Notes: a model not told the origin generated them from the letters alone. A DNA stretch of 64,000 nt from an uncultured Verrucomicrobiota bacterium (GCA_964475405.1 CAYYWX010000001.1:6333-70332); one strand, 5' to 3'. Positions 18,841 through 36,567 are shown, counted from the first letter of the stretch. Numbers and translations: made by a program.

Positions 18841-20472
18841 TTATTTTCCCGGGCCGCCGATGCAATACAGATACCTCTGCGCCCGGTAGAAGATATTGTT
18901 GCCGTCAAAGAACGGGGTGCTCACCGTCCCCTCAAGCGTATTGTTCCCATAGTAGTAATTGATGCGCTGGTCGATGGTATTGCGTCCGACTTCCTTGTAT
19001 TCCCGGCCCGGCTCAAGGATCAAGGTCGTCCCGAAGTTGCCGACCAGGAATATTTTCCCCCCGGCCAGGGCCGGCGAGGCGGCCATCCCGCAGCCATAGG
19101 GCCGGTCATTGCGCAACGGCTCATTGCCGAAGTCGAGATTTTTGCTGTAAACGACCTTTTCCGTCAGGACATCGCAGACGAATAACAACATTTGGGGACC
19201 CAGCGCCGGTTTACCTTTGCTAGGCATGATCGGATTGTTGCCGCAGACATAAAGCAACCCGTCGTGATAAAGCACCGAGGGCACCACGTGGCGTCCGCCG
19301 TCGGGCGGGACCAAGGCTGTTCCCTTGATTACCGGCTTGAACGGCGCGTCGGCCTTTTCGGGCAATTGATAATAACGCACCGGGCTGCCGTTGTTCGCTG
19401 TGCTGACGCCGCCCATGCCCTCCATCCAGAAAACAAATCCGCCGCCGAACACCGGCGATCCCTTGCCGGTATGTATGAGGGCGCCCTTGGAAAAACAGAC
19501 ACCGTCCGAGGCGCGGATCAGGCTGCCGTCGCCGGCGGCGAACACCTTTTCACCCCCAATGACCGAGCTGACATGGGAGGCAAACCACCAGGCACCGCCC
19601 TTGAGGTCCGTTCTCCAGGCGTCCTTGCCGGTTTTCTTGTCAAAGGCCAGGTATTGCCGGCCGACATAAGTGATCACCAGGTCGCCGACCAGCAGGGGTG
19701 AACCGTAATGGCCGTGTTCCTGCGGCACAAGCTTGTCATAACGGATCCATTGGCGGTTGCCGTCAAGGTCAAAGCAGGCCGTCACGCCCCAGCCGTTCCA
19801 GGCAAAAACAAATTTTCCGTCGGAGACCGGGGTGGCGGCCATGAATCCGCCCTCACCCCCTATTCCGCTCTTATAGTTCTTGTCCAAGTTGCCGGCGGCG
19901 ACGAGGAGTTTGATCACCTCGCCATTCATCACCCCGTCAATCTTGGATATTTCCCCGCCCAATTGGAAAACTCCATTCGTTCCGGGATCGGTTATTTTCG
20001 CAAGGAGCGCATCGCGCTGTTGCGCCTGCTGGTCCAGCTTGTCAAAGACCTCCTTGTTCGCTTCGCGTTCTTCCTTCGTCGCGGCGTCATAGGGACTGAC
20101 CGGCTTGACCCACAGGATTTTACCCGTGAGTTTATCCGCGCAGATCAATTCATAGTTGTTGCCGGTGGCAAAGAGTTTGTCGCCGACCGCGATCACGGAG
20201 CTGGGAGAGTCAAATGGCATAATGGTCCGCCAGGCGATATTAGTCCCCTTGCCGTCCTTCAGGCTCCAGTTCATGGGCGGGGTGGCGCCGGAAAATTTTC
20301 CCGTGCCGTCCCCGCGCCAGCCGACCGGCTGTTCGGGCGACGGGCGGAAGTCCGGCGAACCCAGCAGCGCGTCCTTGGCCGCGACCGTTGTTGAAACGCC
20401 GAAGATTAAAACCGCGAAAGCCAGGCCGGCGGCCTGGATCGTTCTTCTCGTCTTGTTCGGGTCAATTTTCAT
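18841..20472 (-). CDS. Secreted PQQ-like beta-propeller repeat protein, paralog 1 (BamB/PQQ-repeat superfamily)
   Basis: GGGAGA RBS. Signal peptide, then the family N-motif LGSPDFRPSPEQPVGWRGDGTGKFSGATPPMNW. PQQ-like repeats (A.DK.TGKILW). Its C-terminal ~65 aa are near-identical to paralog 2. Confidence 0.8.
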   Translation of the reverse strand: MKIDPNKTRRTIQAAGLAFAVLIFGVSTTVAAKDALLGSPDFRPSPEQPVGWRGDGTGKFSGATPPMNWSLKDGKGTNIAWRTIMPFDSPSSVIAVGDKLFATGNNYELICADKLTGKILWVKPVSPYDAATKEEREANKEVFDKLDQQAQQRDALLAKITDPGTNGVFQLGGEISKIDGVMNGEVIKLLVAAGNLDKNYKSGIGGEGGFMAATPVSDGKFVFAWNGWGVTACFDLDGNRQWIRYDKLVPQEHGHYGSPLLVGDLVITYVGRQYLAFDKKTGKDAWRTDLKGGAWWFASHVSSVIGGEKVFAAGDGSLIRASDGVCFSKGALIHTGKGSPVFGGGFVFWMEGMGGVSTANNGSPVRYYQLPEKADAPFKPVIKGTALVPPDGGRHVVPSVLYHDGLLYVCGNNPIMPSKGKPALGPQMLLFVCDVLTEKVVYSKNLDFGNEPLRNDRPYGCGMAASPALAGGKIFLVGNFGTTLILEPGREYKEVGRNTIDQRINYYYGNNTLEGTVSTPFFDGNNIFYRAQRYLYCIGGPGK

Positions 20473-20658: not shown

Positions 20659-22743
20659 TCATAACTGAGGAGTTATGTTTTTCCGGTACGCGGCGATATA
20701 ACGTTTCAGCCGCGAGCGGTATCCCTCCAAATCGAGCAACTGCTCATCCAGGATCAGGTAAGTCATGTCCGCGGTGCGGTTGGCAAAGTGCCGCGCCCGG
20801 TCGCGGGCGTGCAAATATCTCCGGCCGGGCAAGGACAGTCCCTTGGGCAAACGGGTCCGTTCCCAGAGACGGACAAGGCCGGAGAAGACCCGCTCGCGGT
20901 CGGCGAGGTGATCGCCGATCATCCGCGCGGCCCGGCGCAGATGCCCCAGCGCCGCGCGCCGGTCGGAAAAATGTTCCCCGGACGCCAGGCAAACGGCGTG
21001 TTCCAGTTCCCCGAGCATCAGGATCAGCCCGGCATTGTGGCGCATCAGTTCCGCGACGGACCGCATCAACTCAAGGTCGTGGCGATTCCGCGCGCCGCGC
21101 GAGAGGTTGTCGGCAATGATCGCCTCCGCCCGGAGAAGGGCGTGCTGTTCCTGGAGCGCGCGTTGGGTCAGCGCCCGGTAACGGTTTCGCCAGAAATTGC
21201 TGATCTCAAGGCCGGCGCGCGGGAAATCCGGAAGGTGGATCTTGCCCACGTCGCCGTGATGCCACACGTTGCGCTGGAAAGTGTCGTAATAAAATTCCGC
21301 CGAGTTTTGCAGAAGCGCATAAAGTTCCGGCAGGTCGCGGCCCTCCGGGCCAAAATAGCGCAGGAAAAACCGGCGCGTCCAGCCGGCAATATCGCGTTCT
21401 CGGGCATTCCAGGAGAATTCCGCCCCGCAGACGAAACGCCCCATCCACATCCGGGTGTGAAGGCCCGAGTCGTCCCACGATGTAATGATCGCGCCCTCCA
21501 CGGCCCCGGTCCGCGCCGCGGCGGCGATTGAGGCCGTCTCTTTGAACGTCCCCTGCCGCTCGCATCCCGGCTCGTTCTGCCACATGGACCGCTGCACCCA
21601 GGGAAAATGCGGCAGGAAAAGCGGGGTGATGCCGGGGTTCGGCGCGTAAGTCCAGAGCGCGCGCCCGGCGGCGCGCGCCGCCGCCAAGCTTTCATTATCG
21701 CCGAAAGCCACGCTGACCATGGACTCCGAGGCCGGGTGTTTTGCTCCGGCCTGCCACTGGCCGCCCCACGAGATTGCTTTCCGTCCGCGCTTTTCCACGT
21801 GCGCGACGCAGCGGCTGAGAAAGTCCTGCATCAGCTCGTCCTTCCCCGCCACCCCGGCCCGCGCCTGGCATCCGCACTCCGCGCCCTGGCCCAGTTCGTA
21901 AGTCTCGTCGCAGCCGATGTGAATAAACTCGCTGCCCGGGGTGGCGGCGATGGCCTCGTCCCAGAGATCAAAGAGAAGGCGTAACGAGCCATCCTTCAGC
22001 GGGCAAAATTCCCAGTTGGAATCGGAAATCTCCCGCAGATGCCGGTGCCGGGGATGCTTGAGGATGAACGACACGTGCCCGAGTCCCTGGACGAGCGGCA
22101 CCAGCTGGACGTGATGCTTGAGCGCCAGGCGGGCAAAGGCGCGCACCTGGCCCGGCGTGAAGGCGCCGGGAGCGCCGATTTCCGGGTGACGGCGGTAGGC
22201 GAACTTGTCCTCCCATTCCCAGACCAGCACGTTTATTTTCCAGGACGCGAGTTGGAGGATGAGGTCCCGAACATAGGCAGCGGTGGGCTGGTGGTGCTTG
22301 GTGTCGTAATGAATGGCGCGATATTTCAGGTCGGGCCAATCGTTGATTTCCAGGCACGGGGCCATGACGGCGTCGCCTTCCCGGCGCAAGCACTGTCGCA
22401 GGGTCTGCATGGCATAATAGACGCCGGCGGCATCGCCGCCCTCCAGGACGATTTGTCGCGGTTGAATGGTCAAGCCATAGCCCTGCGGCGGGCGTCCACT
22501 GCCGCGCTTGATGATGAGCTTCACGCGTCCCGGACCGGACCGGCCTTTCGCCACACGCGCCTCCAGCCCGCACTCGGAGCGCAGGCAGCGGCCCAGGTAC
22601 CCGGCCGAGAACCGGTCTTCAGCCGGGGCATCGGGAGCGAGCACGATTGAGATTCCCCGGGAGAGGCGGCAAAAACCTCCGGCCGCCCGGACTTCCTGCG
22701 GCTCGGGAATCAGCGCCAACTCTGGCATTTCGCCGCGTTTCAT
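20659..22743 (-). CDS. Glycoside hydrolase family 20-like beta-N-acetylhexosaminidase
   Basis: GH20 catalytic (beta/alpha)8 signature H-x-G-x-D-E present as HIGCDETYELGQG, with the upstream GH20b-like N-domain. Its ATG overlaps the stop of paralog 2 (ATGA), so the two are translationally coupled. Confidence 0.7.
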   Translation of the reverse strand: MKRGEMPELALIPEPQEVRAAGGFCRLSRGISIVLAPDAPAEDRFSAGYLGRCLRSECGLEARVAKGRSGPGRVKLIIKRGSGRPPQGYGLTIQPRQIVLEGGDAAGVYYAMQTLRQCLRREGDAVMAPCLEINDWPDLKYRAIHYDTKHHQPTAAYVRDLILQLASWKINVLVWEWEDKFAYRRHPEIGAPGAFTPGQVRAFARLALKHHVQLVPLVQGLGHVSFILKHPRHRHLREISDSNWEFCPLKDGSLRLLFDLWDEAIAATPGSEFIHIGCDETYELGQGAECGCQARAGVAGKDELMQDFLSRCVAHVEKRGRKAISWGGQWQAGAKHPASESMVSVAFGDNESLAAARAAGRALWTYAPNPGITPLFLPHFPWVQRSMWQNEPGCERQGTFKETASIAAAARTGAVEGAIITSWDDSGLHTRMWMGRFVCGAEFSWNARERDIAGWTRRFFLRYFGPEGRDLPELYALLQNSAEFYYDTFQRNVWHHGDVGKIHLPDFPRAGLEISNFWRNRYRALTQRALQEQHALLRAEAIIADNLSRGARNRHDLELMRSVAELMRHNAGLILMLGELEHAVCLASGEHFSDRRAALGHLRRAARMIGDHLADRERVFSGLVRLWERTRLPKGLSLPGRRYLHARDRARHFANRTADMTYLILDEQLLDLEGYRSRLKRYIAAYRKNITPQL

Positions 22744-24413
22744 TTTTCGCTGGTCCCTTCCGGCTCGCCAATGCAGTAAAGATGCCTCTGCGCCCGGTAG
22801 AAAATCTTGTTGCCGTCAAAAAACAGGTTACCTACCGTCCCCTCCATCCTGTCTTCCTTATAGTAGTAACTGATGCGCTGGTCGATGGTATTGCGTCCGA
22901 CTTCCTTGTATTCCCGGCCCGGCTCAAGGATCAAGGTCGTCCCGAAGTTGCCGACCAGGAATATTTTCCCTCCGGCAATGGCCGGCGAGGCGGCCATCCC
23001 GCAGCCATAGGGCCGGTCATTGCGCAAGGGCTCATTGCCGAAGTCGAGATTTTTGCTGTAAACGACCTTTTCCGTCAAGACATCGCAGACGAACAATATC
23101 ATGTTCTCTTCCACTCCCCGCTTGCCGCCGCCGCGGGTGATGGTCGTACTGTTGCCGCAGACATAAATCAAACCGTCGTGATAAAGCGGCGAAGGCACCA
23201 CGTGGCGCGCGGTTTCGGGCACTTCCAGGGCCGCGCCCTTGATGGCCGGCTTGAACGGCGCGTCGGCTTTTTCGGGCAGTTTATAGTAACGCAACGGACT
23301 GGTTAATGACCCATATCCATCCAGCCAGCAGACATACCCGCCACCGGCCACGGGCGATCCCACGCTGGGATGCCAGCAGGCGCCCTTGGCAAAACGGCCG
23401 CCGTCGGCAATGGTCATCAGGCTGCCGTCGCCGCCCACCATCACTTTTTTACCATCAATGACTGTGCCGACCGGCGAGGCAAACCACCAGCCGCCCTCGC
23501 CCGGACCCGCCTTATGATCCGTTCTCCAGATTTCCTTGCCGGTTTTCTTGTCCAGCGCCAGGTATTGCCGGCCGACATAAATGATCACCAGGTCCCCGGA
23601 AAGAAGGGGCGAGCTGTAATGGCCGTGCTCCTGCCAGGCGAGCTTGTCAAAGCGGATCCACTTGCGGTTGCCTTCAAGGTCAAAGCAGGCCGTAACGCCC
23701 CACCCGTTCCAGGCGTAGACCAAAGCGCCGTCCGAAGCCGGCGTGGTGCCCATGAACCCGCCTTCGCCCGATATCCCGGGGCCCTTGTATTTTACCTTGT
23801 CGGACGCGGCAAGGAGTTTCATCATCTCGCTGTCGTTCTTGGTTATTTCACCGCCCAGCTTGAAAATTTCGTTGGAGACCGCCGCGGCGGCGACGGCCGG
23901 CATCTTCGCGAGGAGCTCATCGCGCTTTTGCGCCATTTTATCCAGGTTGTCAAAGAGCTCCTTGTTGGCCTCCCGGTCTTCCTTCGTCGCAGCGTCATAG
24001 GGGCTGACCGGCTTGACCCACAGGATTTTGCCCGTGCGCTTCTCCACGCAAATTAGCTCGAAGTCGTTGCCGGTGGTGAAGAGTTTGTCGCCGACCGCGA
24101 TCACGGAGCTGGGAGAGTCAAGGGGCATCCGGACCTGCCAGGCGATATTGGTCCCCTTGCCGTCCTTCAGGCTCCAGGTCATGGGCGGCGTGGCGCCGGG
24201 AAAATGCCCCGTGCCGTCCCCGCGCCAGCCGACCGGCTGTTCCGGCGAAGGGCGGAAGTCCTTTGAACCCAGCGGCGCGTCCTTGGCCGCGGCCGAAGTT
24301 GAAATGCCGCACATTAAGACCGCGAAGGCCAGGCCGGCTGCCGGGATTATCGTCCTCGCAAAATTCAGGTCAATCTTCATTATCTGTTTTCCTTTCAGGG
24401 AACTCATGGTCAC
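22740..24413 (-). CDS. Secreted PQQ-like beta-propeller repeat protein, paralog 2
   Basis: Signal peptide plus N-motif LGSKDFRPSPEQPVGWRGDGTGHFPGATPPMTW. PQQ repeats (CVEKRTGKILWVKPVS). The 3'-terminal ~200 nt are essentially identical to paralog 1. Confidence 0.8.
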   Translation of the reverse strand: MTMSSLKGKQIMKIDLNFARTIIPAAGLAFAVLMCGISTSAAAKDAPLGSKDFRPSPEQPVGWRGDGTGHFPGATPPMTWSLKDGKGTNIAWQVRMPLDSPSSVIAVGDKLFTTGNDFELICVEKRTGKILWVKPVSPYDAATKEDREANKELFDNLDKMAQKRDELLAKMPAVAAAAVSNEIFKLGGEITKNDSEMMKLLAASDKVKYKGPGISGEGGFMGTTPASDGALVYAWNGWGVTACFDLEGNRKWIRFDKLAWQEHGHYSSPLLSGDLVIIYVGRQYLALDKKTGKEIWRTDHKAGPGEGGWWFASPVGTVIDGKKVMVGGDGSLMTIADGGRFAKGACWHPSVGSPVAGGGYVCWLDGYGSLTSPLRYYKLPEKADAPFKPAIKGAALEVPETARHVVPSPLYHDGLIYVCGNSTTITRGGGKRGVEENMILFVCDVLTEKVVYSKNLDFGNEPLRNDRPYGCGMAASPAIAGGKIFLVGNFGTTLILEPGREYKEVGRNTIDQRISYYYKEDRMEGTVGNLFFDGNKIFYRAQRHLYCIGEPEGTSEK

Positions 24414-24445: not shown

Positions 24446-26623
24446 TTACTGTTTCTTCCCCTGTTCCTCAATGCAATACAAATTTTCCTCCCCGCGAAAG
24501 TACATGCGATTGCCGTCAAAGACAGGCGTGCTGGTCATGGTATTGTCCTGGTACTCGGGACAGTACTTCCTGTTGCACCAATATCCATAGTTGCCGAGCG
24601 CCCGGCCGCTTCTGGCAAGGTATTGAATCCGGTTGCGGGCGACTTCTTCATACGTGCGCCCCGGCTTGATGACTATCGTCACGCCGGTCGCTCCCATCAG
24701 GTAGATGTGCCCGCCGGCAAGAGCCAGGCTCGCGCCGAAATAACTGCGTTGATGCGCGGCCGCAAAAAGATCAATCGGCAATTCCTTCTGATACACGCCT
24801 TCCATGGTCACCACGTCGAAAACCTTCAACACTCCATCGCCGCTCACGGTATACCCCAGGCCATCATAAATTAACGGGGACGTCACAAGACTTTTGCCCT
24901 GGTAGAAGTTCAATCCCAACGGCAACTGCTCCGGCAATTTCACGCTTTGCCCTGGTTGTTTGATCGCCAGGCCGTTGTTGGTGGTTGCCTCGACCGTATA
25001 TTTAAGGACACCATCCGGAGAGTTTTGCCATGCCGCATCCCCCTCAAAGATCGGCGTGGAAACCCAGTTGCCCCAGCCTTGCGAGCCGAAGACCTGTCCA
25101 TCCCGGGCGCGCACGAGAATATTGCCGCCGGGACACAGGACGTATTCAGTATCTTTGAACACCGCCCGGCTGAGCGAACCGCCCCAATTCCGCCAGCCCT
25201 TGGTTTTACTCGCGTTTTCAAGACCCACGCTCCACTTCGCCGAGCCGTCGGAGAGGTCAAAGGCCGTGATGGTGCCGTCCATAATGACAAACTTCCTGTC
25301 GGCAATGACCGGCGCGCTGTAGTAGCCATGATGCTGGTACTTCGGCCTTTCGTAGCGTATCCAGCGGCGTTTGCCGTCCAGGCCGTAACAGGCTCTTGTT
25401 CCCCGTGTCAGCCATACAAAAACGCCGCTGCCTTCGGAGGCCGGCGTCGGAATCGTCCACCAGTCCGGCTCGCCCTGCTCGTCGGGCCGCTTGTACTTCA
25501 CGCGGTCCACCTCAAGCATAATTTTGTCCAGCTCGTTTTCAAGCTTAGATTCTTCTTTCACCGCGGCCTCGTCGGGCTGTTTTCCAAGCAAATAGTCTTG
25601 ATAGAAAAGCTCGCGCTTGGCCGCCAGCGGATCCAGCTTGGCGAAAACTTCCGGCTTGGCCTTGCGTTCCTCGGGCGTGGCGGCATCGTAGGGACTGTTC
25701 TGCCGGATCCAAACGATCTTGCCCGTCTTCTTGTCAACGCAGACCAGGTTGTAGGGATGGGCCATGGTGAACAGGAAATCGCCCGCGATGATCGGGTTGG
25801 CCTGGGTCAGCCCCGGCATTCGAACTATCCAGGAAATATTCGTGGAAGCATAGTCGCGCGGTTCTTCCGACGGCCAGAACCGGCAGCGCACAAAACACGT
25901 TTTCGGAAAATCAAAATTGCCCATGCCCATACGGGGCGTCAACTTGAACAGGAAACGGTTCCAGCCCGCCTGAAGCTGCAATTCCAGGGTGGGCCCCATG
26001 TCGCCGCCTCCGTTATTGACGGGGGTGTCGGGATTGGTGTATTCCCTCGCGCCGTTCAGCCACAACACCAATCCCCTGGCATGGTTCAGATGGAACCAGA
26101 TCTTGGCCGGCTTCTCAACATACAGGCACGCCTGCGCATACGCCGCCTGATCATTGGTCATAATTCCCAAGGGGCGAAAAAGGTCTATAAAGGAGTCTTC
26201 CACCTTGACCATCTGCCAAATTGCGTTGCCAAGTTTGTCGCCTTCCCGCGGTGCGAACGACGCTTCCCCGGGCATCACTTCCTGCGCGATCGCGTTGGTC
26301 AGACCGGCGCACGAAAACGGGCCGGCCACAAGCCACTCCGTGAAAAATCCCGTCGTGGCCGGGGTTGCGCCGGCGGATGAATTGTCCTTCGGCGCGGCGG
26401 CCGCGCATTTCAAGTCGCCAAGTTGCTTCAGGCTGCGCCCCCAATGCACGGGAGGATTGGCGCCAGGATATTTTCCCGTGCCGTCCCCGCGCCAGCCGAC
26501 CGGCTGCTCGGCGGATACTCGGAAATCGGGCGAACCCAGAACCGCATCTTTGGCCATGATTGTTGAGATGTTGAATGTTAAAAGTGCCAACGCCAAACTG
26601 GCCGTCATAATAATCTTTTTCAT
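24446..26623 (-). CDS. Secreted PQQ-like beta-propeller repeat protein, paralog 3, with inserted beta-sandwich (galactose-binding-like/CBM-like) module
   Basis: Probable true start at MKKIIMTASLALALL (track ORF extends to 26737). N-motif LGSPDFRVSAEQPVGWRGDGTGKYPGANPPVHW. A ~200-aa insert (FFTEWLVAGPFSC...WFHLNHARGLVLWLNGAREY) lies before the propeller repeats (VCVDKKTGKIVWIRQNS). Confidence 0.75.
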   Translation of the reverse strand: MKKIIMTASLALALLTFNISTIMAKDAVLGSPDFRVSAEQPVGWRGDGTGKYPGANPPVHWGRSLKQLGDLKCAAAAPKDNSSAGATPATTGFFTEWLVAGPFSCAGLTNAIAQEVMPGEASFAPREGDKLGNAIWQMVKVEDSFIDLFRPLGIMTNDQAAYAQACLYVEKPAKIWFHLNHARGLVLWLNGAREYTNPDTPVNNGGGDMGPTLELQLQAGWNRFLFKLTPRMGMGNFDFPKTCFVRCRFWPSEEPRDYASTNISWIVRMPGLTQANPIIAGDFLFTMAHPYNLVCVDKKTGKIVWIRQNSPYDAATPEERKAKPEVFAKLDPLAAKRELFYQDYLLGKQPDEAAVKEESKLENELDKIMLEVDRVKYKRPDEQGEPDWWTIPTPASEGSGVFVWLTRGTRACYGLDGKRRWIRYERPKYQHHGYYSAPVIADRKFVIMDGTITAFDLSDGSAKWSVGLENASKTKGWRNWGGSLSRAVFKDTEYVLCPGGNILVRARDGQVFGSQGWGNWVSTPIFEGDAAWQNSPDGVLKYTVEATTNNGLAIKQPGQSVKLPEQLPLGLNFYQGKSLVTSPLIYDGLGYTVSGDGVLKVFDVVTMEGVYQKELPIDLFAAAHQRSYFGASLALAGGHIYLMGATGVTIVIKPGRTYEEVARNRIQYLARSGRALGNYGYWCNRKYCPEYQDNTMTSTPVFDGNRMYFRGEENLYCIEEQGKKQ

Positions 26624-26667
26624 TTTTTCCTTTCTATCCAAGGTGGCATATAGCCGCGACCGAATTT

Positions 26668-26705
26668 TCAGATTCCCCGCACACTGTGCGGGGCTACAGT
26701 TGTTT
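26668..26705. repeat. Double-hairpin module (copy 1): ccccgcaca-ctg-tgcgggg followed by gctaca-N10-tgtagc
   Basis: Perfect IRs seen in sequence. A second copy of the same two-hairpin arrangement is at ~29862-29900. Confidence 0.4.
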
Positions 26706-26913
26706 ATTTGTAGCGCGTCACCAGGCTCCGCCGCCATGTCCCGCCGGAGCGGCTTCGCGTAGGGGGAAGCGCTTCCGCCGTCGCCCTGTAGTTAAGCGAA
26801 GCGTATACTACAGGGCTATGGTGGACAAGTCGCCCAGGCGAGCAATGTGACACGTTGTTTTCTTCTTCTACAAAAGCGCCATATGTTTAAATGGAACTAT
26901 GTGTCTTTCTTAT

Positions 26914-28356
26914 TCATCGCACTCCATAAATTGTGCCCGCCCGGATGTTTTCATAGGCGCCCATGTCAACGGTGCCGTAGCGGATGCGCGCGCGGCCGTC
27001 CAGATCCCTGCTCGTGACGCTTCCATCCCTCATCCAGGAAAGATTCGTCCCGGCGTTGACGCACGGCGAGCGCCCTGAAAGGCGGTAATTACCGGCAACA
27101 TGGTTCGTCCCGTAGTCGCTGCCCTTATCCAGCAACATCGGATCATCGGTGATATTCCCGGCCCCGGCCGCGGCGGGCGCCGTGCAGCTATTTACGAAAG
27201 TGCATCCGGTCCAGTTTGAGATGCTGGCGCCGCCGGAATTGAAATATACGATGCAATTAGACAGAGTGCCGCCATACACTCCGCCGCCGCCGGTGCCGCC
27301 GGTCGCCTTGTTACCGACCAGTGTGCAATTATACAGCTTGCTTGCGGCTGATGATCCGGCGCCGCCGCCATAACCGGCATGGTTGCCAGTCAATAAACAG
27401 TTATACAAAGTGCTGTCATACGCCCCGCCGCCGGCCATGCTGTCTGACGCCCTGTTGCCGGTCAACGTGCAGTTATACAAAATGCAAGAGTGAACGCCAC
27501 CGCCATAGTTTTCAGTCGCCTGATTGCTAATCACCGAGCAGTTATACAGGGTGCCACCATATGCCCCGCCACCAGCGCGCGCCGTATTGGCCGTAAGCGT
27601 GCAATTAGACAAAACGCAGCCGCGGCCACCGCCGCCGTACTTTCCAAGGTTGCCGGTCAACGTGCAGTTAACCATGATGCTGTACGCCGCGCCGCCGCCA
27701 TGGGTGGCATTAAGAGCAGGCGCGCCATATGTCATATTGCCGATCAGCGAGCAGTTATGCAACGTGCCATACCATACTCCACCACCTCCATAGTTGCCGG
27801 CCAATCCGCCGTAGGCCGAGTTGCCGGTTATGATGCAATTGGATATCACCGGGGTCGTGATGGCGGGACAATACACGCCGCCGCCGCAGCCGGACAGGCT
27901 CTCCACGCTCAACGTGGCGCCATTGGTGATTGTAAAACCGATCAAGGAAGAATTGGCGGCCATATAAACGCAACGAACAGCATTCGGGCCGTTGGTATTG
28001 CCGTCCGAGGCCCAGGCGCCCCTGATGATCGTATTTGTCGGATTGTTGTCCTTGCTCCTGACAGTGATCGCCTTGGTGATCGCAATCCGGTTGGTCAGGA
28101 TCGAGCCGGCGGGGTAATTCGTGACACCGCCGGAGGCATATATCCCATTGCTGACCCAGATCGTGTCGCTCGCCGCGGATTTGTCTATTGCGCCCTGGAG
28201 ATTGTTGGTGGCGTTCGCCCAGCCATTTGTCCCCAGGCCGGTCCCATTCGTCGCCACATACCAATCAACCGCCGGCGTTGTCCTGAGCAAACTAATCAAT
28301 AAAAACGCCGCCAGGCATACTTTCCACCGCATGCTACTTTTCGTTTTCATTATCAT
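26914..28356 (-). CDS. Secreted right-handed parallel beta-helix repeat protein (pectate-lyase-fold, glycine-rich LYNC(T/S)L(T/I)GN repeats)
   Basis: Signal peptide. About ten tandem ~22-aa repeats (GGGAY..TLYNCTLTGN...). C-terminal ...GTVDMGAYEN ending characteristic of this family. Confidence 0.7.
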   Translation of the reverse strand: MIMKTKSSMRWKVCLAAFLLISLLRTTPAVDWYVATNGTGLGTNGWANATNNLQGAIDKSAASDTIWVSNGIYASGGVTNYPAGSILTNRIAITKAITVRSKDNNPTNTIIRGAWASDGNTNGPNAVRCVYMAANSSLIGFTITNGATLSVESLSGCGGGVYCPAITTPVISNCIITGNSAYGGLAGNYGGGGVWYGTLHNCSLIGNMTYGAPALNATHGGGAAYSIMVNCTLTGNLGKYGGGGRGCVLSNCTLTANTARAGGGAYGGTLYNCSVISNQATENYGGGVHSCILYNCTLTGNRASDSMAGGGAYDSTLYNCLLTGNHAGYGGGAGSSAASKLYNCTLVGNKATGGTGGGGVYGGTLSNCIVYFNSGGASISNWTGCTFVNSCTAPAAAGAGNITDDPMLLDKGSDYGTNHVAGNYRLSGRSPCVNAGTNLSWMRDGSVTSRDLDGRARIRYGTVDMGAYENIRAGTIYGVR

Positions 28357-28359
28357 TAA

Positions 28360-28925
28360 CCAACAATTTCTTTTGTTAGACTATATTATCAAAACAGTTA
28401 CAAATCAATCAACACACATGTTGCCTTTTTGTCATAGTATTGCTTATATTTGTCATTTAGATCGTTCCGTTAAAACCCTGGCCACGCATTTTACGTGGTA
28501 AACCTGTGACTTGCCAAGTTACCAAGTCGCGGGTAAGGCCAAAGGCATGGCTGGGCAGGCATGACACACTTTTGCGGAGAAGTTGGAACGTATGACAAAA
28601 AGAATTCTTGTCCCGCTCAATCCCGATATCAAATCGGGATTGGGCGGCAGACTCGCAGGGCGAATTTCGCTTCCGCCAGTGCGGATTGGGAAAAACAAGG
28701 CAAGACCGGTTTAGATGCCGGTGCGCCGCGTGAAGCATCAGACTCGATTCTATGCGAACGCGGCAAGCCGGCAGATAAGCCGGTATCGCCGACTTGTCCT
28801 CCGTAGTCCGCTGTAGCGAGACGAAGGAGGACGTATTTTCCCAACGAAATTCGCACTGCTATGAACAACGAACGGCGATAAATAAATTTGGTTGCGGCTA
28901 TATGCCGCCTTAAGGAGGAATCACA
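28360..28925. promoter_or_regulatory. Long AT-rich divergent control region between the beta-helix gene and the AraC gene, with direct tttgtcat repeats and several small hairpins
   Basis: Direct repeat tttgtcat-N23-tttgtcat around 28425-28465. Perfect hairpin caatcccgat-atcaa-atcgggattg at ~28618-28642. Strong RBS (taaggaggaatcacaATG) before the AraC gene. Confidence 0.4.
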
Positions 28926-29789
28926 ATGGCAGGCAGAGCGCTTGAACAGGACGACTGGCTCAGGCTCAACAGCCGGTTGCTGTGGATATATGACGAGGCT
29001 GTCCCTGAAACAGGCAGCAGGAAGTTCAGCTCGCCGAATTATTCGGCCTGGCTTGTCAGGCGCGGGCACGTGAAAGTTTCATGGCCCGGACATGAACCAA
29101 TCGTAATCGGCGGCGGGTCCTGGGTGATTCCTCCGCTCAACGTGGAAAGATCGCAGTTATTTTCGCGCGATGCGGCCATTCTTTCCATGTGCTTCCAGCT
29201 TGAATGGCCGAATTACAGCCCGCTTTTTCCGCTGAAAAAACTGGTTTCCTTCCGGTCGTCATCCGCGCCGGAACTTGAGAAACATGCGCTGGATCTTTTG
29301 AATGTTTCCGGCGGACGCCTGACGTTCCCCTGGTGGCGCGAGGACGGATTCATGGACTTCGGGAAACATTCCGCTTCGCAGGCAAAATTCTGGCAATGGC
29401 TCGCCCGCTGGTCCTCCGTCATGATCAAGAACGGCGTGGAGCCGTTTATTCCCGATAAAATGGACAGCCGGGTGGCGGGTGCCATCAAGATGATTGACGG
29501 CCTCTCCTTCACGGGTAAAATTCCTTACGGCAACCTGGAAAAAATCGCCGGGCTGGGAAAAGTTCAAATTGACCGGCTTTTCCTCAAAAACATCGGGATG
29601 ACGCCCCGCAAATATCTTGAAAGAAGGGTCTTGGAATCCGCCAGGGAACTGCTCCAGACAACCGGAATGTCGGTCAAGGAAATAGGCTTCAAGCTGGGCT
29701 TCGCCTCCGCCTCGCATTTCTGTTTTTGGTTCAGGAAGCGCGCCGGTATCTATCCGCTGGATTTCAAGCTCAAGGGATGGCCGTTTTAA
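28926..29789 (+). CDS. AraC/XylS-family transcriptional regulator
   Basis: C-terminal double HTH (LFLKNIGMTPRKYLERRVLESARELLQTTGMSVKEIGFKLGFASASHFCFWFRKRAGIYP) and an N-terminal ligand-binding-like domain. Divergently oriented to the hydrolase/PQQ gene array. Confidence 0.8.
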   Translation: MAGRALEQDDWLRLNSRLLWIYDEAVPETGSRKFSSPNYSAWLVRRGHVKVSWPGHEPIVIGGGSWVIPPLNVERSQLFSRDAAILSMCFQLEWPNYSPLFPLKKLVSFRSSSAPELEKHALDLLNVSGGRLTFPWWREDGFMDFGKHSASQAKFWQWLARWSSVMIKNGVEPFIPDKMDSRVAGAIKMIDGLSFTGKIPYGNLEKIAGLGKVQIDRLFLKNIGMTPRKYLERRVLESARELLQTTGMSVKEIGFKLGFASASHFCFWFRKRAGIYPLDFKLKGWPF

Positions 29790-29861
29790 GGCTCCGGCCG
29801 ATTGCCGGCAATCGCTCGCGCGGGTTTATTCCTGAAACAGGCTATGCCCGCAACCCAAGTT

Positions 29862-29900
29862 CGCCGCACACCGTGCGGCGCTACAATTGTAGTTCGTCAA
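29862..29900. terminator. Double-hairpin module (copy 2) between convergent AraC and paralog 4 genes; likely bidirectional terminator
   Basis: cgccgcac-acc-gtgcggcg followed by the palindromic gctacaattgtagt. The same architecture as the element at ~26668. Confidence 0.4.
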
Positions 29901-29910
29901 GAAATGAAAA

Positions 29911-32133
29911 CTACCGCTCTTCAATGCAGTACAGGTTTTCCTGTCCGCGGTAATACATGCGTTTCCCCTCGAAAACCGGCGCGCTGGCGATGGTGGATTC
30001 CTGCTGCTCGACAATGTAAGGCAATTTATAGGAGGTGTTGCCGTAGATGTTGATACAATAAGAGCCGAGCGCCCTGCCGCCTTTCACCATCCTGGTGTCC
30101 TGCGATTCATCTCCCCTGACGATATGTTCCACCTTGTTGCGCGCGACCTCCTCATACTGCCGGCCGGTCTTGAAGACGATCGTGATGCCGGTGGGGCTCA
30201 TGACATAGATGTAAGGGCCGGCCAGGGTCGGGCTTCCACCCCACCAATTGCACCACGGATTACGGGAGAAACTGTTGATGTCGCCGGCCAGTTCCTTCTG
30301 GTAGACCGCGGCCATCTGCTCGATGTCAAACACGGTCAGCACGCCGTCGTCGCTGACCTGGTAACCAAGTCCTTCGTGTATAACCTGGGAGCCGCAAACG
30401 CTCCTGAACATGTCCTGGTATCCCGGGGGCTTGATCGGCTTTTCGGCCAGGGGCTTCATTGTGCCGCGCGAGACGGCTGAAACTCCGGAACTGCCGGCCT
30501 TGATGTCGAAGACCCGGGACCCGGACATGACGCGGTCCTTGTCTATCACCGGGGTTATCATGAATCCGCCGGAAAATTTATTGGAGTTCACCTGCCCGTC
30601 CGTGCCCCGGATGAAAACATTCCCGCCGCCCCCGCACAGGTAATCGGTCGAATTGAACCGGTAGTTGACGAACGACCCGAACTGACCCGGGCCGCGAAAA
30701 TAGCCGATCGCGCTTCCGGCGATCTGCCAGGCCTGGAGACCGTCGGCCTGGTTGAAGGCCGTCATGTTGCCGTCATAGATCACCATTTTTCCGTCGGCTA
30801 TGTTCGGCGAGTTGAACCAGTTGTGGTGCTGGGGGAGCGGAGTGCTGTAGCGGGTCCAGCGTCGTTTGCCCGCCATGTCAAAGCAGGCGCGCACGCCGAA
30901 AGTGTTCCAGACATAAATGTTTTGGCCGTCCGAGACCGGCGTCGCCACGGACCATTGTTCCCCGTCCGTGGGTTCCTGGAGTTTCTTGTATGTTTCGTTC
31001 CACGTCTCCAGGATTAATTTGTCCATCTCCTTTTCCAGGGCCATCTGTTCCTTGACCGCCTGCTCGCCCGGCTGGGTGCCTTCCACGTAACTGCGGTAAT
31101 AAGCATCGCGTTTCTCAGCCATGCCGTCCAGCTTGGCGGCCGCCTCTGGATTTTCCTTGCGCTCCTCCGGCGTGAGGGCGTCGTAAATGCTGTTTGGACG
31201 CACCCAGAGGACTTTTCCCGTTTTCTTCTCCACGCAGACCAGGCTGCAAGGATAGGCCGTGGTGAAAATTTTGTCGCCGACAATGATCGGCATTGACAGG
31301 CTGATTCCGGGCATCGTCGTTATCCAGGCGATATTTTTCTCCTGGTATTCATGCGGCTCCCCGGCGCTCCAAAAACGGCAGCGCAGGTAGCATTGCGGCT
31401 TCCAGCCTTCCGCCTTGGTCTCCGAAATTTTGAACAGGAAACGGTTCCAGCCGGCCTTCAACTCCAGGGGGATCACCGGGCCATGGGCAAAATGCCACCA
31501 GGATTGCATGTCCTTGTTGGCGTACATCTGTTTGCCGTTAAACCAGAAGGCCGCGCCCTGGACGTGTTTCAGGTGCGCATAAACCTTGACCGGATTCTCA
31601 ACGTAGAGGCACGATTGCGCGTAGGCCAGCTGGTTACTGGTCATCGGGCCGACCGCTTTCCATAAGTCCACGTATGAGTCGTCAACCTTGACAAGCTTCC
31701 AGGTTGTGTCGCCGATTTTATCCCCCGCCACCGGCGCGAAATCAGCCTCCCCCGGCAGCAATTGGCCGGTGATCGCCTTCACGGCGTCCGTGTCGGAACA
31801 ACTGATCGGCCCGGCCACGAGCCACTCGCTGAAAAATCCGACCGAGACAGGCGTCGCGTCCTTGCCCGACTGGTCCTTCGGCACGGCGGCCAAGCACTTG
31901 ATCCCCAGCATTTTCTTGTCAACCCGTCCCCAATGCACGGGCGGATTGGCGGCCGGGTATTTTCCAGTGCCGTCCATACGCCAGCCGACCGGCTGTTCCG
32001 GGGAAGGACGGAAATCAGGCGATCCGAGCGGCGCCTGTCCCGCGACAGCGCCGCGAACGCCGCAGGTTAGAAAAATGAGCGCCAGGACGGGTGCCGGGAT
32101 CATTGTCTTCATGAGGTTGGAATTGATTTTCAT
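29911..32133 (-). CDS. Secreted PQQ-like beta-propeller repeat protein, paralog 4, with inserted beta-sandwich module
   Basis: Signal peptide. N-motif LGSPDFRPSPEQPVGWRMDGTGKYPAANPPVHW. Insert homologous to that of paralog 3 (FFSEWLVAGPISC...YAHLKHVQGAAFWFNGKQMY). PQQ repeats (VCVEKKTGKVLWVRPNS). Confidence 0.75.
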   Translation of the reverse strand: MKINSNLMKTMIPAPVLALIFLTCGVRGAVAGQAPLGSPDFRPSPEQPVGWRMDGTGKYPAANPPVHWGRVDKKMLGIKCLAAVPKDQSGKDATPVSVGFFSEWLVAGPISCSDTDAVKAITGQLLPGEADFAPVAGDKIGDTTWKLVKVDDSYVDLWKAVGPMTSNQLAYAQSCLYVENPVKVYAHLKHVQGAAFWFNGKQMYANKDMQSWWHFAHGPVIPLELKAGWNRFLFKISETKAEGWKPQCYLRCRFWSAGEPHEYQEKNIAWITTMPGISLSMPIIVGDKIFTTAYPCSLVCVEKKTGKVLWVRPNSIYDALTPEERKENPEAAAKLDGMAEKRDAYYRSYVEGTQPGEQAVKEQMALEKEMDKLILETWNETYKKLQEPTDGEQWSVATPVSDGQNIYVWNTFGVRACFDMAGKRRWTRYSTPLPQHHNWFNSPNIADGKMVIYDGNMTAFNQADGLQAWQIAGSAIGYFRGPGQFGSFVNYRFNSTDYLCGGGGNVFIRGTDGQVNSNKFSGGFMITPVIDKDRVMSGSRVFDIKAGSSGVSAVSRGTMKPLAEKPIKPPGYQDMFRSVCGSQVIHEGLGYQVSDDGVLTVFDIEQMAAVYQKELAGDINSFSRNPWCNWWGGSPTLAGPYIYVMSPTGITIVFKTGRQYEEVARNKVEHIVRGDESQDTRMVKGGRALGSYCINIYGNTSYKLPYIVEQQESTIASAPVFEGKRMYYRGQENLYCIEER

Positions 32134-32395
32134 TGTCGATCCTTCCGTTATTCCGCGTGGTTTATTCCCAAGCCTACTCTGTGAAATAATTTTCAGATGC
32201 TACCCCCTCCGCCAAGCGTGTCAATGTTATTCTTCACCCCGCGGACTGAATATGATTGACGGGGAGATGCAGAAAGAATAGTTTTCAAAAAAATTTGGAC
32301 GTCCGCCGGCGCATCCGGGTAAGGACACTTATGAAAACATCCGTCGTGGCGTCATCCGCGGTTTCCGCTGAAAAATAACAGGGGGATTATTTACT

Positions 32396-34495
32396 ATGAT
32401 CATTTGGAACATGACCAAAACAATGACTTTGGCAACCGGCCTGGCGTTTGTTCTCCTAATCCACGCTGTCCGAGGTGTTGCGGCAGGAGAGGCGCAATTG
32501 GGTTCCCCGGATTTCCGCCCTTCGCCGGACCGACCGATCGGCTGGCGCGGGGATGGTTCCGGGAAATATCCGGCGGCCGAGCCGCCGCTTCACTGGGGAC
32601 GCGTGGCGAAATCGGTGAAGGAATTATGCGCCCAGTCCGCCAAGCCAAAGGAGGGCGACAAGGGGAAACCGATACCCGACGGCGTCATCCGCGAATGGAT
32701 GGTTCTGGGACCGCTGCCGGCGCCGGAGGGCAGGAATTTCACGAATGAACTCATCAGCGGGGAAGCCGATCTCAATCCGGCCGAGAACGACAAAATCGGG
32801 GAAAACGCCTGGAAAAAGGTTTTGCTGGAAACATCCTGCCTTGACCTTGCGACCTTGTTTGACCTTGCCGGTAAAACAAACCCGGTCGTCGCCTACGCCT
32901 GCGCGAACTTATGCTCCCCCGGCGGCCAGCCGCTCATCCTGAATTACATGCACGGGGGGATGACTCAAATCTGGCTCAACGGCAAAATGATCTACAACTG
33001 GAACCCCGCCGCCAATTCCACCGTGCGCTTGCAGCTCAACCCGGTAAAAGGCTGGAACCGGCTGGTCATCAAGATCAGCGCCAAGGGCTACATGCGCCCG
33101 GTGATCTTCGGCGCCCTTCCCGGCGAGTACGAGAGCAAGAATATCGCCTGGACCGCCGTCTTTCCGGCCGCGGGCCACAGTTCGCCGCTGATTGTCGGGG
33201 ACAAGATTTTTGCCATCGCCGAGGGCGGCCGCCTGTGCTGCCTGAACAAGGCGGACGGCAGGATCCTCTGGGTCCGTTCCAGCACTTACTTTGACGCGGC
33301 GACGGAGGAGGAGAAGAAGGCCAACCCGGACCTTTTCAAGGAACTGGAACCGCTCGCGGCAAAACTCAGGGAACTGGATGACGCCTGGGTGGCATCGCCG
33401 CTGCCGGATACGCTGAAAGAGCGCGGGAATATAGAGACCCTACTCTACAAGGGCGTTGTCAAAGTGAACAAGGAAAAATACCGCATGGCCGACGGCAGCG
33501 AGGCCGGCTACAGCGCCCCCTCCCCGGTCAGCGACGGACAGCGCGTCTACGCGGCTTTCGGCTCAGGCCTGGTTGTCTGCTATGATTTTGAAGGCAACCG
33601 CAAGTGGCTCACGCTCGAAAGCCACCCGACCGTGGAACACGGTTACACCTCTTCACCGCTGCTGGTGGACGGCAAATTGATCGTCTATTTCGGCAACCTG
33701 CGCGCGCTGGACGCGAAGACCGGCGCGGTGGCCTGGCAGCGGCCGCGCTACCTGCTCACGGGCGACAGCCTGACATATTGCGTGTTTCGCGGGACCGGTT
33801 GCGTGCTGCCGGCCGGCAATGACAAGGTGGCCTATTTCCTGAACGGCGATTTCGCGCGGGTGAGCGACGGCAAGATGCTCTGTGCGGACTTCTGGAAATT
33901 CGGCGACAACCGGATCGCAAGTCCTGTTGTCGATCGCGGTGTGATATATAAAATCGCCTCCAATAGTGGCGGCGTCACGGCCATCAAGCTTCCGGAACCG
34001 GCCGGGGATAAAATACTGCCGGAGATTGTCAAAAAGATTGCCTTCGACACCGGGAAGTTTCCCGTCAAGTTCTTTAATACCTACTACAATGCCTCGCCCT
34101 TGCTCAATGAAGGCCTTATGTACTGCGTGGACCAGGACGGCGTCCTAACGGTCGTGGATGTGGAAAAAGGAGAAGTGCTCTACCAGAAGACGCTTGATCT
34201 GGACCTGTACATGCACCACAACTTCGGTCCCGGCCGGGGCGGCGCCTCGTCCAGCCCGACGCTCGCCGGCAAGTATATCTACATCTTCGGCAACCAGGGA
34301 ACCTGCCTTGTCATCGAGTCGGGCCGCACGTACAAGCAGGTCGCGAAGAACCGTGTGGAATTCATTTACGGCGCGCGGGAATGGTGGGCGCGCCAGGAAA
34401 TCACGATGTCGTGCCCGGTCTTTGAGGGCCGGCGGATGTACTTCAGGGCGGACGCGAACCTGTACTGCATTGAAGAAAAAGGAACTGACAAATGA
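32396..34495 (+). CDS. Secreted PQQ-like beta-propeller repeat protein, paralog 5 (plus strand), with inserted beta-sandwich module
   Basis: AGGGGGA RBS. Signal peptide. N-motif LGSPDFRPSPDRPIGWRGDGSGKYPAAEPPLHW. Insert (IREWMVLGPLPAPEG...IWLNGKMIYNW). PQQ repeats (CCLNKADGRILWVRSST). The stop overlaps the next gene's start (ATGA). Confidence 0.75.
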   Translation: MIIWNMTKTMTLATGLAFVLLIHAVRGVAAGEAQLGSPDFRPSPDRPIGWRGDGSGKYPAAEPPLHWGRVAKSVKELCAQSAKPKEGDKGKPIPDGVIREWMVLGPLPAPEGRNFTNELISGEADLNPAENDKIGENAWKKVLLETSCLDLATLFDLAGKTNPVVAYACANLCSPGGQPLILNYMHGGMTQIWLNGKMIYNWNPAANSTVRLQLNPVKGWNRLVIKISAKGYMRPVIFGALPGEYESKNIAWTAVFPAAGHSSPLIVGDKIFAIAEGGRLCCLNKADGRILWVRSSTYFDAATEEEKKANPDLFKELEPLAAKLRELDDAWVASPLPDTLKERGNIETLLYKGVVKVNKEKYRMADGSEAGYSAPSPVSDGQRVYAAFGSGLVVCYDFEGNRKWLTLESHPTVEHGYTSSPLLVDGKLIVYFGNLRALDAKTGAVAWQRPRYLLTGDSLTYCVFRGTGCVLPAGNDKVAYFLNGDFARVSDGKMLCADFWKFGDNRIASPVVDRGVIYKIASNSGGVTAIKLPEPAGDKILPEIVKKIAFDTGKFPVKFFNTYYNASPLLNEGLMYCVDQDGVLTVVDVEKGEVLYQKTLDLDLYMHHNFGPGRGGASSSPTLAGKYIYIFGNQGTCLVIESGRTYKQVAKNRVEFIYGAREWWARQEITMSCPVFEGRRMYFRADANLYCIEEKGTDK

Positions 34496-36567
34496 ACCTG
34501 ACGCTGGTCGGCGACCATAGCAATGATTTGTGTTCCGTTCTGCGGCAAAACAAGGTGGATTTCGAGCATTGCGCTTCCGCGCGGGAAGCAATCGCGAAGG
34601 CCGGCAAGGGCGCGGGGATTATCATATTGGCCGACGGCTATCCGGAGAAGACCACGGAGCTGGACACAACCCTCCTGGAAAATGCCGCCGCGAAAGGCGC
34701 GCGACTTTACGTTGAATTCCCCGCGCGGTTACCCGGCACGGGAATGACGAAAGCCGGTGAAACGCGAAAATCCGGATGGGAGCGCGCGGTTGTGTCCTCG
34801 GACACCTTTGGCCCGGAACTGAAAAAATTGCGGATACTGATGATCCACGGCTGCCGTTTTGTTGACGTCAAGGCGGATAACCCGCACATCGCGCTGGCGC
34901 GCGTTGCCGGATTTGACACTGCCGTTTTCGGCCTGCCCGGCAATGCCGCCCCTATCCTCTTTGAACATCCAAGCGGCAATCTCCTGGTGGCAACCACCAA
35001 GCTAAGCCAATTTATGACAGGCCGATACGCTCCGCCGGATGCATGGGCAAGGGTCTGGCAGTGGATTCTCGGCTGGCTTCTCCCGGGGCGGACACTCCCG
35101 CAACTGCGCTGGACGCCGACAGTTCGTCCATCCTATCCGGCCGATACGACCCTTCCGCGCGATGTCGAGGAAGAGGCCTTCCGGCGCGGGGTCCGGTGGT
35201 TCGGCAAGGCCAGGCTGTTCATCCACCCCGACTGGCAGGACGAGGCCCAACAACGCCTGGAAAAATTTCACGATGGAACCGGACCGGGACCGGAAAAAAC
35301 CCGGCCGGTCGGCGACGGCTCTTGCGGCATGATTGAGGGCGCCAGTTCAAAGATTTACCCGGACGGCACCCAGGACTGGCGCTATCATGTGCGCAACGAC
35401 TGCATGGGCGAGACTTCGATGGCGATGGCTTTCGCCGGGACGCTGGCGGATGATAAAGGCGCATCCAAATTGGCCGGGAATCTAAATAACTTCATCTATT
35501 TCAACTCCATCTTCGCCAAGGGACCGCGGGCGAACCCGGAAAGCCCGTCCTACGGCCTGATACCCTGGATGTCGCAGCCGCCCGCAAGCGGCGTCTATTA
35601 CGGCGATGACAACGCGCGCTCCATGCTCGGCACGATGGCCGCCTCGGCCCTGCTGCATACCGACCGCTGGGACAAACCGCTCCTGAAATGCCTGCTTGCG
35701 AATTTGCGCACAACCGGCCCGCTCGGGTTTCGGAACAACTCGCTCGACGAGCGCGACCTCCAGGAAAAGGGCTGGCGATATTTCTGGGAAACGGAGCGCG
35801 CTAATTACGCCCCGCACTACGAAAGCTGGCTGTGGGCGACTTTCCTCTGGGCCTATCGCCATACCGGCTTCAAGCCTTTCCTTGACAGGGCCGTCACCGC
35901 GATCCGCCTGACCATGGAAGCCTACCCGGACGAATGGCGCTGGGCGAACGGGATCCAGCAGGAACGGGCGCGCATGTTGTTTCCGCTGGCCTGGCTGGTG
36001 CGCGTGGACGACAACGACCTGCACCGCCGCTGGCTGCGCGTCATGACCGGGGAACTGCTGGCGCGGCAGGATGCCTGCGGCGCCATCGCCGAGGAGGTGG
36101 GTTCCGCCGGCCATGGCGCCTACGGTCCGCCCCGGACAAACGAGGCATACGGCACGAGCGAAGCCCCGCTCATCCAGCAGAACGGCGACGCGCTTTGCGA
36201 CCTGCTCTACACTTCCAATTTTGCTTTCGCCGGACTGCACGAGGCCGCCTCCGCCACCGGCGATTCATTCTACTCCGGGGCGACCGACAGATTGGCAAAG
36301 TTCCTTTGCCGGATCCAGGTCCGCTCAGAAACCCAACCGGAATTGGATGGCGGGTGGTTCCGGGCATTTGACTTCAAACGCTGGGATTATTGGGCCAGCA
36401 ACGCGGACCTCGGCTGGGGCGCCTGGAGCATCGAGTCCGGCTGGACGCAGGGCTGGATCACGGCCACGCTGGCGATGCGGCAGATGAAGACTTCCTTGTG
36501 GGACCTGACCGCCGGCACCGGGATAAAGAGTCATCTGGACGAGCTGCTTCCGGTGATGCTGCCTTGA
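34492..36567 (+). CDS. Hypothetical protein, probable (alpha/alpha)6-toroid glycosidase-like fold; translationally coupled to paralog 5
   Basis: ATGA overlap with the upstream gene. No signal peptide. The Trp/aromatic-rich C-terminal half (WLWATFLWAYRHTGF...WASNADLGWGAWSIESGWTQGWI) is reminiscent of six-hairpin glycosidases, but no family could be assigned. Confidence 0.6.
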   Translation: MNLTLVGDHSNDLCSVLRQNKVDFEHCASAREAIAKAGKGAGIIILADGYPEKTTELDTTLLENAAAKGARLYVEFPARLPGTGMTKAGETRKSGWERAVVSSDTFGPELKKLRILMIHGCRFVDVKADNPHIALARVAGFDTAVFGLPGNAAPILFEHPSGNLLVATTKLSQFMTGRYAPPDAWARVWQWILGWLLPGRTLPQLRWTPTVRPSYPADTTLPRDVEEEAFRRGVRWFGKARLFIHPDWQDEAQQRLEKFHDGTGPGPEKTRPVGDGSCGMIEGASSKIYPDGTQDWRYHVRNDCMGETSMAMAFAGTLADDKGASKLAGNLNNFIYFNSIFAKGPRANPESPSYGLIPWMSQPPASGVYYGDDNARSMLGTMAASALLHTDRWDKPLLKCLLANLRTTGPLGFRNNSLDERDLQEKGWRYFWETERANYAPHYESWLWATFLWAYRHTGFKPFLDRAVTAIRLTMEAYPDEWRWANGIQQERARMLFPLAWLVRVDDNDLHRRWLRVMTGELLARQDACGAIAEEVGSAGHGAYGPPRTNEAYGTSEAPLIQQNGDALCDLLYTSNFAFAGLHEAASATGDSFYSGATDRLAKFLCRIQVRSETQPELDGGWFRAFDFKRWDYWASNADLGWGAWSIESGWTQGWITATLAMRQMKTSLWDLTAGTGIKSHLDELLPVMLP

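Follow-up and report, generated by a model that had tools for sequence, protein, structure and literature searches.

The DNA window analysed here is a stretch of 64,000 nucleotides (nt) from an uncultured Verrucomicrobiota bacterium (GCA_964475405.1, CAYYWX010000001.1:6333-70332), in which we found five paralogous open reading frames (ORFs), p1 to p5, whose products have the 8-bladed PQQ-like beta-propeller fold also seen in BamB. Three of them (p3, p4 and p5) contained an additional segment at a fixed site between a conserved N-terminal motif (N-motif) and the propeller. This segment is predicted, with good support from modelling, to be a jelly-roll beta-sandwich of 150-170 residues that belongs to the galactose-binding-domain-like superfamily. 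It is closest by fold to the N-terminal domain of glycoside hydrolase family 2 (GH2) enzymes, and closest by sequence, via its relatives, to PA14. We consider that the jelly-roll and the propeller together may form a non-catalytic, probably glycan-recognising unit, with a probability of about 0.55.

The N-motif common to p1-p5 was LGSPDFRPSPEQPVGWRGDGTGKYPxAxPPxxW, and in p4 it occupied positions 31930-32028 on the minus strand (LGSPDFRPSPEQPVGWRMDGTGKYPAANPPVHW), directly before the insertion point. The spacing from its PPxxW to NIAW, which is the first propeller strand, was only 8 residues (SLKDGKGT) in p1 and p2 but 200, 198 and 181 residues in p3, p4 and p5, respectively. A preliminary description of this DNA had claimed an extra module in p3-p5 that p1 and p2 lack, and the spacing agrees with it; the strings it quoted were all found in the translations. 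The p3 insert (25841-26440, minus strand, 200 amino acids (aa)) started with a linker of about 30 aa, and its jelly-roll core began from FFTEWLV (26347), with WLNG at 26051-26062 and GWNR at 25955-25966. The p4 insert (31336-31929, minus strand, 198 aa, core 31336-31836), which was the segment used for modelling and fold search, had WFNG at 31534-31545 and GWNR at 31441-31452. The p5 insert was found at 32597-33139 on the plus strand (181 aa, core 32687-33139), with WLNG at 32972-32983 and GWNR at 33050-33061. The three inserts are homologous, with 49% and 31% identity to that of p4. The domain always began at the same distance from the N-motif, some 22 residues downstream of the first residue of its GWRGDG core. 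Through a homologue search that returned 143 proteins, a segment of 170-265 residues was located at the same place in about 95 of the 120 listed homologues.

Residues 62-272 of p4 were modelled with AlphaFold2 from a 93-sequence alignment, giving an all-beta sandwich with a predicted local distance difference test score (pLDDT) of 92.4 and a predicted template modelling score (pTM) of 0.90. This result excluded both disorder and extra propeller blades for the insert. The preliminary description had proposed a beta-sandwich of the GH2-type or galactose-binding-like kind, to be checked through fold prediction and Foldseek comparison; both were run, and a separate beta-sandwich of that kind was obtained. 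In the Foldseek search, PA14-bearing enzymes of GH3 (KmBglI) and GH31, together with GH2 enzymes, were ranked first. The model could be superimposed on solved PA14 domains, with comparison scores of 9.7 for GH3 KmBglI (3abz), 8.7 for GH31 (2xvg) and 8.2 for RsgI3 (6qe7), and of 8.4 (6m8m), 8.5 (5a3l) and 7.8 (Flo5) for the adhesin domains; the carbohydrate-binding modules (CBMs) CBM35 and CBM6 scored about 7. The PA14 family (PF07691) comprises lectin modules of adhesins (Flo5, Epa and MpPA14), sensor domains of RsgI anti-sigma factors and inserts in GH3 and GH31 enzymes; as in GH3 and GH31, the segment studied here lies within the chain of another domain. The jelly-roll was also similar to domain 1 of GH2 enzymes (PF02837; LacZ and CsxA domain 1). 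Domains of the GH2_N type usually belong to the body of an enzyme and are not binding modules in their own right. The partner is different in the two cases, being a TIM barrel in GH2 and a beta-propeller here, where no catalytic domain was identified.

At the sequence level these likenesses were faint. Pfam recognised PQQ_2 in p1-p5 over the propeller only, except for a weak BetaGal_ABD2 match in the insert of p5 (E 0.11), and none of the Pfam, CBM and PA14 models attained its threshold with the inserts. The gathering threshold of Pfam PA14 (24 bits) was not reached by any insert, although 2 of 26 matched (best E 0.066). PF02837 gave no match to the inserts at E<=1, and the domain that follows them is the PQQ_2 propeller, not the Ig-like domain and TIM barrel of GH2. 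The p4 insert alone, searched against PDB sequences, gave no match at E<=10. With a 26-member insert profile, the best PDB matches were CsxA and a GH2 beta-galactosidase, which were non-significant (E 0.16), and the alignment covered the WxNG...GWNxLxxK motif. The sub-threshold Pfam matches of the inserts and their relatives (BetaGal_ABD2, PA14, Glyco_hydro_2_N, CBM_35 and RhaB_D2) all fell in one clan, the galactose-binding-like one.

When the insert profile was run against 1.84 billion representatives, 11,742 clusters (50% identity) matched with E<=1e-3 and 3,822 with E<=1e-10. The jelly-roll family is large, and it has no Pfam model. Among the 143 top matches examined, 38 were quite different proteins that carried 2-7 tandem copies of a core of about 150-170 residues, with FN3/Pur_ac_phosph_N, RHS repeats, BNR_2 and DUF6701 as partners. 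In P0125-P0140 and others, up to seven copies (P0125, 3178 aa) alternated with FN3 or preceded RHS repeats. Most of the free-standing copies contained GSDDGxKVWLNG, with I or V at x in the tandem type, and none of them reached the threshold of a Pfam model; they scored 20-24 bits with PA14, just below the threshold of 24 in 4 of the 9 tandem-copy proteins scanned (20.6-23.6 bits). Comparison of the propeller inserts with the free-standing copies through hhalign gave a probability of 100% and E 4.5e-41, a relationship far beyond chance, and by sequence the inserts and the tandem copies are one family. Within the PA14/galactose-binding-like superfamily, the insert represents a divergent branch for which no model exists.

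Since neither Pfam nor NCBIfam detects this domain, the labels of thousands of proteins from planctomycetes say no more than ‘BamB’ or ‘PQQ-like’ at present, and a family model would correct this. It would also split two branches, the tandem copies of large surface and RHS proteins, which keep the calcium site of PA14, and the degenerate copies locked to a propeller.

The full-length mature p4 model had a pLDDT of 89.6 and a pTM of 0.92, and from this pTM the jelly-roll and propeller are predicted to form one rigid body in a fixed arrangement. The strand pattern of p4 corresponded to about eight blades. Between blades 1 and 2 we found a helical hairpin of about 55 residues (31003-31170, minus strand), in which one long helix (model residues 297-318) is followed by another (325-345). 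The hairpin is a conserved feature of the family, short forms included, and equivalents were present in all five paralogs, for example from residue 126 of p1 (SPYDAATKEEREANKE). The best structure matches of the propeller were YxaL and BamB, and Rv3035 was also similar. Compared with these 8-bladed PQQ-like propellers (PF13360), p3-p5 differ by the jelly-roll after the N-motif and by the hairpin, of which we know no equivalent in BamB or YxaL. No solved structure in the PDB subset searched aligned over more than 356 of the 708 residues, and the two-domain architecture was unmatched there. We also found no description of it in the literature searched.

The same two domains were found in other genomes as part of sigma factors. 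Of nine relatives of about 970 aa that were tested, eight contained extracytoplasmic function (ECF) sigma-70 regions 2 and 4, and in seven of the eight one hydrophobic helix was predicted about 50 residues upstream of the N-motif. These fusions (P0062, P0092, P0160, P0178, P0188, P0204, P0241 and P0243; about 950-1020 aa) lie outside the window. Their order is ECF sigma-70 regions 2 and 4, predicted membrane helix, N-motif, PA14-like jelly-roll and propeller, and no description of such an architecture was found in the literature searched. The fusion to a sigma factor and a membrane helix indicates that the jelly-roll and propeller would be the extracytoplasmic part of membrane-tethered sigma factors. 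A similar coupling of PA14 to a sigma-factor pathway exists in the RsgI anti-sigma factors, in which PA14 dyads sense polysaccharides (PMC6852018), and this parallel favours ligand recognition over catalysis. The free copies that accompany FN3 arrays or an RHS protein, and the C-terminal PKD/Big domains of p3 relatives, are also in favour of a recognition role.

Considering these results together, we propose that p3, p4 and p5, which are secreted two-domain proteins, would serve in extracytoplasmic ligand recognition, and that the ligand would most probably be a glycan, in keeping with the glycosidase genes around them. Binding would take place on a non-canonical surface or in a cleft formed with the propeller, instead of at the lectin calcium site. 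A precedent for binding at such a composite surface is GH31, where an inserted PA14 domain extends the substrate-binding pocket (PMC4967831). In this genome the soluble copies might assist the exo-glycosidases with which they are co-transcribed (GH20, GH42-like and GH127), perhaps by keeping hold of the substrate or presenting it, and in other genomes membrane-tethered ECF sigma factors may use the unit to sense the outside. If glycan recognition is true, it would offer a first clue to what the large ‘BamB paralog’ expansions of Planctomycetes do, and would help explain membrane-tethered ECF sigma factors whose signals are not known. We might further speculate, with considerably less confidence, that the N-motif, jelly-roll and propeller constitute a glycan-receptor cassette specific to Planctomycetota or the Planctomycetes-Verrucomicrobia-Chlamydiae (PVC) group. 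It would be a soluble SusD/SusE analogue in glycosidase operons and, on single-pass membrane-tethered ECF sigma factors, a sensor analogous to RsgI-PA14, with a new inter-domain binding site replacing the lost calcium site. To our knowledge, these bacteria are expected to lack Sus systems.

Several results weigh against glycan recognition. Lectin PA14 domains have an Asp-cis-Asp calcium-binding motif on the strand preceding the xDG/xNG turn, and further calcium ligands in loop CBL2. A profile of the tandem relatives matched the PA14 dyad of RsgI3 (E 0.0075), with GsDDGvKvWlNG aligned on the Asp-cis-Asp strand, and the position of the motif was fixed through this alignment together with PMC6852018. 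The two aspartates were found in none of the 92 propeller-type inserts and none of 103 single-copy representatives, but in 36 of 60 free-standing tandem-type copies; the equivalent residues are A-R in p3, V-Q in p4 and G-G in p5. An acidic P-D-x-D loop was likewise present in 0/92 propeller-type inserts, versus at least 18 of the 60 free-standing copies. The propeller-borne branch has lost the Asp-cis-Asp calcium/sugar site of PA14, and the insert is therefore a jelly-roll that resembles PA14 and GH2_N but is degenerate, the canonical lectin site being absent. In RsgI3, the Asp-cis-Asp motif and its calcium ion are required for pectin binding, and a Clostridium thermocellum RsgI3 PA14 copy with N-G in place of the motif bound neither calcium nor pectin alone (PMC6852018). 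The conserved residues of the insert (W104, G108-P109, E129, P134, W145, Y171, N199-G200 and G228-W229-N230) recur for the most part in the free-standing copies, and most of them are placed in strands; they have the look of structural positions and not of a binding site particular to the family.

The genomic neighbourhood adds to these objections. We clustered 936 ORFs around 79 related loci by all-against-all BLAST and found no conserved partner and no recurrent glycosidase; the glycosidases of the window do not recur, and their association with the propeller genes is a peculiarity of this genome. The neighbours that did recur, each in no more than ten loci, were response regulators/GGDEF proteins, kinase- or formylglycine-generating enzyme (FGE)-sulfatase-type proteins, ABC ATPases, 3-keto-disaccharide hydrolase, PSCyt-type proteins and GFO_IDH_MocA, which we take to be high-copy families of the phylum. 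Both the absence of the calcium site and the fact that glycosidases are not conserved as neighbours in other genomes weaken the sugar-binding interpretation. Since the usual calcium- and sugar-binding residues are missing, carbohydrate capture, as the preliminary description had suggested, may be regarded as a reasonable and plausible reading only.

Three other explanations should be considered beside glycan recognition by a non-catalytic unit. The proteins might be a new carbohydrate-active enzyme family, with the active site in the propeller and the jelly-roll walling or extending the substrate pocket. The closest folds of the insert are indeed accessory domains of glycosidases and not free CBMs, its likeness to the GH2 N-terminal jelly-roll and to the PA14 domains inserted in GH3 and GH31 suggests such a role, and the pocket extension in GH31 (PMC4967831), the rigid two-domain body predicted at pTM 0.92 and the co-transcription with glycosidases would all be consistent with it. 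But the best propeller matches, YxaL and BamB, are non-catalytic, and no glycoside hydrolase or lyase propeller appeared among the 60 matches listed. The conserved propeller residues are the usual Gly/Asp/Trp/Pro positions of the repeat motif with no obvious catalytic cluster, the use in ECF sigma fusions is more typical of sensors, and p1 and p2 manage without a jelly-roll, so we think an enzyme unlikely. A role outside carbohydrates, to which we would give a similarly low chance, is that the jelly-roll is a degenerate PA14-like spacer or protein-protein surface, and that the proteins are scaffolds docking envelope or secreted proteins, as BamB does on BamA. The loss of the Asp-cis-Asp and acidic-loop motifs in every propeller-type copy would be expected for such a scaffold, as would the lack of conserved glycosidase neighbours at related loci, and BamB, YxaL and Rv3035, to which the propeller is most similar, act through protein contacts. 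Planctomycetes also have very large families of ‘BamB’ paralogs with no assigned role, 28 of them in T. immobilis (PMC8567305). On the other side, the window genes are in glycosidase operons, where one is translationally coupled to GH20, the fold class is overwhelmingly carbohydrate-associated, and the domain is kept under selection in thousands of clusters.

It is very improbable that these proteins are genuine BamB orthologues, that is, lipoprotein subunits of the beta-barrel assembly machinery (BAM) with a decorative insertion. Pfam PQQ_2 is described as the BamB family, and a BamA gene (Omp85 and POTRA; 49-1662, plus strand) is present in the same window. The BamB equivalog models, however, gave only 15-44 bits for p1, p4 and p5, far below the cut-offs of 285 (TIGR03300) and 423 (NF008351), and true BamB was rejected on these scores. 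The presence of five paralogs in the locus, with at least one other elsewhere on this contig (P0018), is also not what BamB would show, nor are the family-specific helical hairpin and the location within glycosidase operons. A hydrophobic signal-peptide-like N-terminus was seen by eye in each of p1-p5, and these resembled the signal-peptidase-I type and had no lipobox. The statement of the preliminary description that the role is not that of a BamB-like chaperone therefore holds, given the low scores, the five paralogs inside glycosidase operons and the separate BamA gene. A PQQ-dependent dehydrogenase was also tried and rejected, the cut-off of TIGR03075 (480 bits) not being attained. The BamA gene lies at the left end of the window together with an LpxD gene (2288-3337, plus strand), and from both we conclude that the organism is diderm and that it possesses a BAM core of which the propeller paralogs are not a part.

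The preliminary description had treated the domain as an insert gained by p3-p5, and this direction is probably wrong. In a neighbour-joining tree of 429 N-motif and propeller columns, p1 and p2 were located within the clade of long forms; in 87% of 100 bootstrap replicates they descended from the most recent ancestor shared by p3, p4 and p5. They grouped with p3 and p4, p5 excluded, in 80%, and the distant short PQQ propellers remained outside in 97%. The long form was also the common architecture among the listed homologues, and in species genomes 54 of 95 relatives had the insert and 41 did not. Because p1 and p2 are nested among long forms, loss in these two is likelier than gain in p3-p5. 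The likeliest history, with moderate support, is that the domain was acquired once, long ago, and that the lineage of p1 and p2 later lost it, so that these two would be derivatives without the jelly-roll.

The genes of the short forms are p1 (18841-20472, minus strand, 543 aa; N-motif 20266-20364) and p2 (22740-24413, minus strand, 557 aa; N-motif 24174-24272), in which 8-aa linkers at 20242-20265 and 24150-24173, respectively, replace the jelly-roll. Among the long forms, p4 (29911-32133, minus strand, 740 aa) is identical to P0001, and p5 (32396-34495, plus strand, 699 aa; N-motif 32498-32596) is identical to P0027. The ORF of p3, which comprises signal peptide, N-motif (26441-26539), jelly-roll and propeller, covers 24446-26737 on the minus strand, and the likely gene is 24446-26608. 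The homologue P0006 begins with MKKIIMTASL, which corresponds to M44 of p3 at position 26608, where the signal-peptide-like segment also starts. The true p3 product is thus probably of 720 aa instead of the 763 aa of the ORF, excluding 43 upstream codons (26609-26737, minus strand).

On the minus strand the genes are arranged in the order p3, p2, GH20, p1 and the GH42-like gene. The stop codon of p2 overlaps the start of the GH20-family hexosaminidase-like gene (20659-22743) by ATGA at 22740-22743 (GAAAAATGAAACGC), which indicates that a propeller paralog and a hexosaminidase-like enzyme are translationally coupled. The GH42-like beta-galactosidase-type gene (15352-18813, minus strand, 1153 aa) is located 27 nt downstream of p1. 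Near the paralogs there are also a GH127 gene and, between the p3 and p4 genes, an AraC-family regulator (28926-29789, plus strand). An orphan ORF of 691 aa (34492-36567, plus strand) overlaps the p5 stop by ATGA; it lies in the glycosidase locus, had no signal-peptide-like N-terminus by eye, and matched nothing in Pfam, NCBIfam or the PDB sequences.

Between p3 and the AraC gene, positions 26914-28356 (minus strand) encode a secreted protein of 480 aa with Gly/Asn-rich, NCTLTGN-like repeats, for which there was no Pfam match but an NCBIfam choice-of-anchor Q domain match, a parallel beta-helix repeat being below its cut-off. Three more ORFs of the window, 9679-12195 (plus strand, 838 aa), 12192-13046 (plus strand, 284 aa) and 14524-15327 (minus strand, 267 aa), had no Pfam match, and the first showed only weak coiled-coil-type (SMC-like) NCBIfam matches.

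In species genomes the related loci were almost all from Planctomycetota (Phycisphaerae, Pirellulales, Planctomycetaceae, Thermoguttaceae and Tepidisphaerales), with a few in Verrucomicrobiota and Firestonebacteria. The nearest relatives there, with 40-46% identity, belonged to Phycisphaerales, an unclassified planctomycetotal metagenome-assembled genome (MAG) and Firestonebacteria MAGs. Two or more paralogs were present in 29 of 75 related loci, and relatives of p3 carried C-terminal PKD/Big domains. Three loci, L021, L027 and L067 (CAZOCL010000215.1, CAZCBE010000018.1 and CAZOCL010000460.1), came from MAGs titled ‘uncultured Klebsiella sp.’ that carry this planctomycete-type family, and these bins are probably mislabelled or contaminated.

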